IMG/VR virus record: IMGVR_UViG_2645727991_000009
Reading direction: 5' to 3' (one strand)
DNA length: 7,574 nucleotides
Origin: a virus
Taxonomy: Duplodnaviria; Heunggongvirae; Uroviricota; Caudoviricetes
Positions within the stretch are counted from its first letter, which is position 1, and the number at the start of each line of letters is the position of its first letter. The position numbers and the translations under genes were made by a program. Below are positions 1,125-1,469 of the stretch, one piece after another. Below the pieces are notes generated by a model. It ran no database searches. It was given only the letters and a program-made list of their open reading frames with translations, and was not told where the DNA came from.

Positions 1125-1469
1125 ATGAAGAAAAAATACGAACTGGTTGTTAAAGAGATAAATAATTACCCGGATAAGATTGCTGTTACTGTGGCACTTG
1201 AAATTGGCGGGCATCCGTCGTTGTTGTTGCCACATGTGGCGATTAGTCTTGACCGTACTGAAGGTGCCACGCTGGAGTTTTACGAAGCTGAGGCGAAAAA
1301 GCAGGCGAAGCAGTTTTTCATGGATGTTGCTGCCGGGTTATGTGAAGGGGATGGTCCGTTACCGGAAAAGCGTCCCGTAATTTTAGAGGCGCAGGATGTG
1401 TTGATAACCTACAGAGGAAAACTACCGGGAATAATTACGGGTTCTCTGAAGACTCCACCGCTGGCCTGA
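1125..1469 (+). CDS. Hypothetical 114-aa soluble protein between holin and endolysin (possibly YdfR/DUF1327-like); function unknown
   Basis: The ATG is 4 nt after the holin stop with a GGGGAG-like SD upstream. The product has no TM segment or signal peptide. The position matches my recollection of ydfR between essQ and rrrQ in the E. coli Qin prophage; that family assignment is from memory only. Confidence 0.65.
   Translation: MKKKYELVVKEINNYPDKIAVTVALEIGGHPSLLLPHVAISLDRTEGATLEFYEAEAKKQAKQFFMDVAAGLCEGDGPLPEKRPVILEAQDVLITYRGKLPGIITGSLKTPPLA

Follow-up and report, generated by a model that had tools for sequence, protein, structure and literature searches.

Which role does a small soluble protein play when its gene stands between the holin and the endolysin genes of a phage lysis cassette? 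The question is raised by the virus record IMGVR_UViG_2645727991_000009 (Caudoviricetes), a stretch of 7,574 nucleotides (nt) referred to here as the window. The open reading frame (ORF) at positions 1125-1469 of its plus strand belongs to the YdfR family (DUF1327), whose members are among the commonest uncharacterised prophage ORFs in Escherichia coli. The gene is real and conserved, its product is soluble and modular, and it is optional and not bound to one slot. On a tentative reading, its product would be an accessory late cytoplasmic protein whose amino terminus domain engages RNase E and/or RNA, carried by an optional insert that would strip the endolysin gene of its Shine-Dalgarno (SD) sequence. 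The family, its position and its annotation were already on record; the context added here comprises the optional insert, the hand-over of the SD sequence, the modularity of the protein and the homologues found in other slots with convergent ORFs.

Identity of the gene and organization of the lysis cassette

The ORF starts with ATG, has 114 codons and ends with the TGA at 1467-1469. Its product matches the Pfam DUF1327 profile (PF07041) over residues 1-112 with 145.1 bits (E=7.4e-43), the curated gathering threshold of the family being 25 bits, and PHROG 406 (E=7e-63), which carries no function label. A lambdoid prophage of E. coli FORC_042, with Q, holin, lysozyme, Rz and terminase, matches the window at 99.3% identity. 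The copy of the ORF found there (99% identical) is labelled "YdfR family protein" by RefSeq and lies between a "class II holin" and a "lysozyme". ORF47 of the Shiga toxin (Stx) phage BP-4795, which is of the Stx1 type, is the same gene, and copies with 100% identity at the protein or DNA level occur elsewhere. The pooled ratio of nonsynonymous to synonymous substitution rates (dN/dS) amounts to 0.44 over codons 1-72 and to 0.28 over codons 73-110: both the amino terminus domain and the tail that follows it are under purifying selection. The DUF1327 score, the identical copies and the dN/dS below 1 put the reality of the ORF far beyond chance, and its membership of the YdfR/DUF1327 family is secure. 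The GC content of the ORF is 47.2% and that of its third codon positions (GC3) 47.0%, the GC3 of the holin and lysozyme genes being 63.9% and 57.9%, respectively.

The product is soluble. Its maximal Kyte-Doolittle hydropathy over 19 residues is 1.09, which excludes a transmembrane (TM) segment (the holin reaches 1.83 and the signal-anchor-release (SAR) region of the lysozyme 1.74), and its amino terminus is charged (MKKKYELVVKE) and not like a signal peptide. The isoelectric point (pI) is 6.1. A lipobox-like AGLC at residues 70-73 was considered and rejected, being distant from the amino terminus, having the wrong residues at -1 and -3 and lacking a signal peptide. Scans of NCBIfam and PADLOC gave no match for the ORF product, for the long forms of the family or for the antisense partners described below, and a search of solved structures (PDB) with the family profile gave none either.

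The gene is flanked by lysis genes on both sides. Upstream, 905-1120 (+) codes a phage-21-type class II holin of the pinholin family (PF04971, E=1.7e-32; 73% identical to phage 21 S) with a dual start MYQM, whose M1 and M4 codons are at 905 and 914; the counterpart products in phage 21 are annotated antiholin S21-71 and pinholin S21-68. The holin stop codon TAA (1118-1120) is separated from the ATG of the ORF by 4 nt (AGCG). The SD sequence of the ORF, GGAG at 1112-1115 (+), is embedded in the holin 3' end, 9 nt 5' of the ATG, and forms an anti-SD duplex of -8.1 kcal/mol. Downstream, a 50-nt spacer (1470-1519, +) leads to the gene of a SAR-type lysozyme, the endolysin (1520-2053, +; PF00959, E=1.5e-24), assigned from its amino terminus and the E35/D44/T50 spacing. 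This amino terminus is rich in Ala, Gly and Leu and weakly hydrophobic, with its maximum of 1.74 in a 19-residue window at residue 9. The closest solved lysozyme relatives by sequence include 7m5i, 3hde/3hdf and RrrD (4zpu).

An earlier annotation of this DNA, made from its letters and called here the original prediction, had described a 114-amino-acid (aa) ORF without TM segment or signal peptide, 4 nt past the stop of a pinholin-type holin and ahead of a SAR-type lysozyme, and had pointed to a DUF1327-like gene, ydfR, at the same place in the E. coli Qin prophage. The coordinates, the PF04971 and PF00959 matches, the hydropathy and the charged amino terminus all agree with this description. 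The DUF1327 identity, which it had suggested, is borne out by the Pfam profile, and the K-12 Qin prophage does carry essQ, 4 nt, ydfR and rrrQ in this order.

An optional insert that takes over a Shine-Dalgarno sequence

Phage 21 has no ydfR, and there the stop codon of the holin gene overlaps the start of the endolysin gene, so that the endolysin directly follows the holin, as had been stated. In the Stx2 phage VT2phi_272, which also has no ydfR, the lysozyme gene begins 4 nt past the holin stop, at the very position where ydfR starts in the window. Because of the junction alignments with VT2phi_272, mEp460 and K-12, the additional DNA is delimited to 1125-1519; as these alignments read, it is an optional insert of ~395 nt at the holin-endolysin junction of S21-type cassettes.

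A DUF1327 gene is found in 101 of 436 phage records having this holin type. The order holin-ydfR-lysozyme recurs in the K-12 Qin prophage, BP-4795, mEp460, Evi, PhiR42_1 and PhiR12_2, and the ATG is exactly 4 nt past the holin stop in 92 of the 94 Escherichia-type loci for which upstream flank is available. Conservation at this position in related prophages, on which the original prediction had made its reading depend, is a property of the family in Escherichia. The 3' side is more variable: the distance between ydfR and the lysozyme gene ranges from -4 to 478 nt, 66 of the 94 loci having a 50-nt spacer. In K-12 and PhiR42_1 the two genes share an ATGA, the stop of ydfR overlapping the start of the lysozyme gene, and all long-gap variants in E. 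coli hold a small antisense ORF.

The SD sequence in the holin 3' end serves the lysozyme gene in VT2phi_272 (-8.5 kcal/mol) and ydfR in the window (-8.1). Lysozyme starts found behind ydfR have no SD sequence, the anti-SD duplex being +0.3 kcal/mol in the window, +1.1 in K-12 and -2.8 in mEp460. They are preceded by an A/U-rich leader, TGATAAATATC(C/T)ATG, which is common to the window, mEp460 and K-12 and absent in VT2phi_272. The 50-nt spacer is the 3' boundary of the insert in the window, where the RNA-structure check found no unusual folding (z=0.31). Since the insert leaves the endolysin gene without an SD sequence, it probably lowers endolysin translation in cis. The hand-over of the SD sequence probably changes endolysin dosage, which is relevant to modelling or engineering of S21-type pinholin/SAR cassettes.

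A consensus scan of 1121-1519 found no sigma-70-like site on the plus strand and no terminator-like site. Co-transcription of the holin, the ORF and the lysozyme gene is plausible because promoter- and terminator-like sites are absent between them. The claim that the ORF must be co-transcribed and co-translated with the lysis genes stands in part: the ORF uses the SD sequence at the holin end and a common transcript is plausible, but nothing shows coupling and the lysozyme gene has no SD sequence. Note that the sole terminator-like hairpin nearby, with a 12-bp stem followed by a T-run, is found at 838-866 (+), 3' of the esterase gene and 5' of the holin start; Q-modified polymerase presumably reads through it.

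A conserved core domain joined to an exchangeable tail

The protein is modular, with an old beta-beta-beta-alpha domain and a young, exchangeable tail. The amino terminus core domain (codons 1-72; 1125-1340, +) is common to the whole family, as defined by an AlphaFold model and a 48-sequence alignment. The model (me0ed8475b0cc) has a predicted local distance difference test score (pLDDT) of 90 and a predicted template modelling score (pTM) of 0.78, and features antiparallel strands at residues 5-14, 18-27 and 37-43 followed by a long helix at 50-74. In these 48 sequences, drawn from four genera, M1, Y53 and E54 never vary, and Y5, L7, V9 and A57 hardly do; the ORF product has the family motif (F/Y)-Y-E-x-x-A at the helix start. 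The core domain is 43% identical to residues 1-74 of K-12 YdfR (E=3e-20).

Structure comparison with BFVD gave no match below E=0.04. Double-stranded RNA-binding domains (dsRBD), the connection subdomain of human immunodeficiency virus (HIV) reverse transcriptase and Rv1738 have at most 18% identity with the core domain, with scores in the range expected by chance for small folds. The dsRBD topology alpha1-beta1-beta2-beta3-alpha2 differs from the model, which is without the amino terminus helix that comes first in a dsRBD; moreover, the core domain is mildly acidic.

The remainder of the protein, termed tail A (codons 73-114, GLCEGDGPLPEKRPVILEAQDVLITYRGKLPGIITGSLKTPPLA; 1341-1466, +), is predicted to be disordered, is mosaic and is specific of Escherichia, as judged from pLDDT, alignment and divergence. 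It reads GLCEG...PEKRPVILEAQDVLITYRGKLPGIITGSLKTPP, and residues 70-114 have a pLDDT below 50. Many of its positions are invariant in the family alignment A1. Stronger constraint was considered as the cause of this conservation and mostly rejected: comparison of the window allele with the divergent "MTQ" alleles gives a synonymous divergence of 0.66-0.70 for the amino terminus domain and of only 0.16-0.20 for the tail, 3-4 times lower in the same pairs. The tail has, on account of this far lower synonymous divergence, been recently shared by mosaic spread. In protein P0152, tail A is joined to an unrelated amino terminus.

Other alleles reach 176, 183, 206, 287 or 329 aa, the family length ranging from 72 to 329 aa. 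The long YdfR forms (176-329 aa; loci L010, 270-890, and L094, 744-1733; proteins P0129, P0018 and P0013) have coiled-coil-like and other carboxyl terminus extensions. A Pfam scan of the extensions of the 176-, 183-, 206-, 287- and 329-aa forms detected no domain.

Distribution and homologues in other late slots

Of 5426 complete E. coli genomes, 3159 (58%) contain DNA related to the gene, in up to 8 places each. The family is nonetheless narrow: it accounts for 276 clusters in a set of 5.8 billion proteins and for 93 representatives in one of 1.84 billion. All 101 matching phage records are E. coli, Shigella or Stx phages; the gene is part of the late operon in Shiga-toxin phages, and in BP-4795 stx is situated a few kilobases upstream of it. 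When one genome per species was scanned, the family was found only in Escherichia and Shigella, plus two contigs of metagenome-assembled genomes (MAGs) that are seemingly mis-binned. These contigs, L008 from a MAG labelled Veillonella parvula and L010 from a MAG labelled Bacillota bacterium, have E. coli-type holin-ydfR-lysozyme cassettes, the YdfR of L010 being 206 aa long; their labels most likely reflect mis-binning or contamination and not the true hosts. A profile built from distant members extends the family to Pantoea, Cronobacter and Sodalis. Identity of the amino terminus domain across these genera and Escherichia is 25-40%, with an invariant Y53-E54 motif. The contexts are those of the late region of temperate phages and prophages of Enterobacterales, and databases contain many variants that are frameshifted, truncated or duplicated. 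Natural frameshift fusions of holin and YdfR also occur, P0003 being one of them.

Homologues reduced to the core domain (72-94 aa; 72-76 aa in Pantoea, Cronobacter, Sodalis and E. coli) are encoded between the tail genes M and L, L and K, or I and J. In Pantoea a DUF1327 homologue lies between Q and a lambda-type holin (holin_3_1), in Cronobacter another follows Rz, and at one locus a protein with tandem DUF1327 domains is encoded between Q and the holin. The gene of P0152, which carries tail A without the core domain, adjoins holin_8.

At most domain-only loci the DUF1327 gene is followed by a short antisense ORF, one end of which lies no more than a few tens of bases away. A recurrent pair is formed by a 72-aa DUF1327 gene, followed after 20-25 nt by a convergent ORF of ~98-101 aa coding a helical protein (phrog_25324). 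The phrog_25324 partners from E. coli phage Evi, E. coli (L112), Cronobacter, Pantoea and a metagenome contig are 58-98% identical, and the slots of the pair differ: between holin and lysozyme, after Rz, or between Q and holin. Coordinates of DUF1327 gene and convergent ORF are 2501-2719 (+) and 2744-3040 (-) in L013, 3501-3719 and 3744-4040 in L112, 1226-1444 and 1469-1765 in L110, 3501-3719 and 3740-4045 in L108, and 446-664 and 693-992 in L020. The pair may be a mobile two-gene cassette. Antisense partners at other loci (phrog_2411, phrog_2572 and phrog_18136) are mutually unrelated, BLASTP giving no cross-match among the partner families, and no partner had a match in PADLOC, Pfam or NCBIfam. 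The window has no convergent partner ORF, and the DUF1327 loci of Sodalis are without an antisense ORF.

Candidate roles of the protein

Searches of the literature on DUF1327/YdfR function found no paper besides one of 2026 on the K-12 protein (PMC13232886). The original prediction, which knew of no function, was nearly right: what it lacked is the binding of K-12 YdfR to the amino terminus half of RNase E reported there. A two-hybrid screen picked up residues 1-72 of K-12 YdfR three times (PMC13232886). The full-length protein interacts with Rne 1-597, the only two-hybrid signal obtained with it, and FLAG-tagged Rne 1-598 co-elutes with Strep-YdfR (PMC13232886). A DNase-resistant nucleic acid co-purifies with K-12 YdfR, for which the authors could not exclude a contaminant source (PMC13232886). 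Its overexpression alters few transcripts, and almost no reads come from K-12 ydfR under standard growth (PMC13232886). Overexpression is not toxic and gives no growth phenotype.

A role of the ORF product with RNase E and/or RNA is suggested because the K-12 YdfR region reported to bind RNase E is the one aligned to it at 43% identity. The sequence of events would be as follows. The Q-antiterminated late transcript would express the ORF from the strong SD sequence in the holin 3' end, the timing following from gene position. The 72-residue amino terminus domain would, most likely and by analogy with K-12 YdfR, dock on the catalytic amino terminus half of host RNase E and/or on RNA. Once docked, it might adjust RNA processing or decay in late development, perhaps of one specific RNA and not globally. 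The product would act neither on the holin nor on the endolysin, and the 42-residue tail would be a younger, exchangeable module.

Several points weigh against this role. The RNase E link comes from one study of a 43%-identical paralogue with a different tail, and for K-12 YdfR itself the full-length protein gave a two-hybrid signal with Rne 1-597 only, few transcripts were altered and a contaminant may have been the source of the RNA. The amino terminus domain has a pI of 6.1 and a net charge of about -1.3, mildly acidic values unlike those of typical RNA-binding domains. Finally, the nearly constant junction of the Escherichia gene to the holin stop could mean a lysis-linked role there.

Such a role would be that of a cytoplasmic regulator of lysis timing, which would bind the cytoplasmic part of the pinholin (e.g., its charged carboxyl terminus tail) or affect release of the SAR endolysin, and would delay or sharpen lysis, resembling in this the soluble antiholin T4 RIII. 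We regard it as unlikely. It is favoured by the fixed start 4 nt past the holin stop with the lysozyme gene next, by the same order in the six phages and prophages named above, and by the existence of soluble cytoplasmic antiholins, as T4 RIII has been described (PMC8385771, PMC9409239). The ydfR mutant of the Keio collection is also a match in the supplement of a chlorophenol red-beta-D-galactopyranoside (CPRG) screen for envelope leakiness (PMC3879167), but polarity of the kan cassette on rrrQ is a simple and likely alternative explanation because the ydfR stop overlaps the rrrQ start (L003, 8055-8366). The gene is missing from about three quarters of the phage records that have this holin type, among them phage 21 as the model of pinholin/SAR lysis, so that steady co-occurrence with a cognate holin, as expected of an antiholin, is not seen. 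The product has neither the TM segment nor the export signal found in S21-71 and T4 RI, which puts the periplasmic catalytic domain of the endolysin out of its reach, and the K-12 protein can be overproduced without effect on growth. The strongest argument against a mechanism specific for the pinholin or the SAR endolysin is the presence of core-domain homologues in tail modules and other late slots, or beside other holin families such as holin_3_1 in Pantoea; a dedicated lysis role is disfavoured for this reason, and the occurrence of tail A beside holin_8 in P0152 points the same way. Those homologues introduce another explanation, in which the gene is the orphan half of a mobile convergent cargo cassette and the DUF1327 protein regulates or neutralises the partner encoded antisense, e.g., an exclusion or defence factor expressed from the prophage and silenced late, the window copy having lost that partner. 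The pairing with phrog_25324 kept across genera and slots, the different small antisense ORFs directly downstream of other DUF1327 genes, and the antisense ORF in every long-gap ydfR-lysozyme variant of E. coli speak for it. However, the partners belong to several unrelated families, so the slot may be a mere insertion hot spot; Sodalis loci have no such ORF; the 66 loci with just the 50-nt spacer, the window among them, keep an intact gene under purifying selection; and PADLOC and NCBIfam are blank for both genes. This explanation is quite unlikely. Very unlikely is a combination of it with the RNase E link, in which the DUF1327 domain would be the late half of a cassette spread among temperate phages of Enterobacterales and would recruit or block RNase E on a target such as the transcript of the antisense partner or a long late mRNA, and in which lysis-cassette copies would have lost the partner and gained the tail.

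Two further explanations give the protein little or no part, and both are held to be improbable. The insert could matter mainly in cis, as a translational spacer that removes the strong SD sequence and lowers SAR endolysin synthesis. The nearly equal duplexes at the holin end in VT2phi_272 and in the window, together with the SD-less lysozyme starts behind ydfR, fit such a spacer. It does not account for an ORF that stays open under purifying selection (dN/dS 0.28-0.44) over very divergent alleles, nor for a domain that forms an independent gene in slots without a following endolysin, and the ATGA overlap in K-12 and PhiR42_1 would restore coupling. Alternatively, the gene could be selfish or decaying cargo, functionless for phage and host and kept only because it is linked to the lysis genes and recombines often, as the damaged and duplicated variants in databases, the very narrow taxonomic range (93 cluster representatives among 1.84 billion) and the extreme length variation (72-329 aa) would suggest. 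Against this stand the dN/dS below 1, an amino terminus domain still recognisable in four genera at 25-40% identity with its invariant Y53-E54, and retention of the gene in inducible, plaque-forming phages. The tentative preference remains with an accessory late protein that engages RNase E and/or RNA. Of the two possibilities named in the original prediction, a lysis-timing or endolysin-regulating factor or a moron, the latter fits better, as the gene is optional and has homologues in other slots; from a classical moron it differs in lacking both a promoter and a terminator of its own.

Other features of the window

The segment 216-755 (+), just 5' of the holin gene as in Stx phages, codes the carboxyl terminus part (DUF6645) of a protein whose gene is labelled "SASA family carbohydrate esterase" by RefSeq. 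The lysis cassette has a second interruption, between the lysozyme and Rz genes, made of an Ant-like anti-repressor gene with domains P22_AR_N and ORF11CD3 and of a 49-aa ORF whose product has a hydrophobic stretch. Nested in Rz, in another frame, is an Rz1-like ORF that codes a lipobox-like ...VVSAC. The intervals of this second interruption and of the Rz region are 2324-2893, 2890-3039, 3047-3514 and 3267-3473. Further downstream, 4389-4574 (-) holds an antisense DUF3950 gene (YnfO/YlcI-like), followed by an HNH endonuclease gene directly 5' of those of the small and large terminase subunits; the intervals of this region are 4616-4981 (+) and 5271-7483 (+). We take the HNH-terminase order of the window to resemble the arrangement of HK97-like cos phages.

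Comparison with known systems

The nearest known relative is YdfR of K-12 (b1555, P76160), encoded in the cryptic prophage Qin. It belongs to the same Pfam family, and the order of its locus, described above, matches that of the window; essQ codes an S21-type holin and rrrQ a SAR-type lysozyme, like the neighbours of the ORF. The K-12 protein differs in its length of 103 aa and its unrelated tail (EKLSEKVESYLQHQYSFKIENPANKHERPHHKYL), and its stop codon overlaps the rrrQ start whereas a 50-nt spacer is present in the window. Judged from sequence, this tail resembles the start of the 206-aa form (L010, P0138), and the K-12 protein looks truncated.

Lambdoid morons (lambda bor and lom, HK97-type cargo) are, like the ORF, optional cargo at gene junctions, with a presence that varies among relatives and a lower GC content. 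A classical moron brings its own promoter and terminator and is expressed in the prophage state. The consensus scan finds neither of these signals for the ORF.

T4 RIII is, like the ORF product, a small cytoplasmic phage protein without TM segment, which could in principle tune holin triggering. Its gene presumably lies outside the lysis cassette and its sequence is, as we take it, unrelated to that of the ORF product. The window gene is missing from most phages that share its holin type, and it has homologues away from holins.

Phage proteins that target RNase E form an established class, with T4 Srd, T7 gp0.7 and phiKZ Dip as mutually unrelated members (PMC4980113). They are small cytoplasmic proteins encoded by phages, as is the ORF product, and they bind or modify RNase E; searches of BFVD and PDB gave no sequence or structural relation between them and the ORF product. 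T4 Srd binds the catalytic amino terminus half of RNase E (PMC4980113), the region also reported for K-12 YdfR (PMC13232886). Srd, gp0.7 and Dip are proteins of virulent phages for which an influence on RNA decay has been demonstrated; no YdfR is known to have such an effect, and few transcripts change with K-12 YdfR. If it holds for the phage-borne alleles, the RNase E link would provide a lambdoid counterpart to T4 Srd or phiKZ Dip, and could bear on the stability of late transcripts and hence on the yield of toxin and virions.

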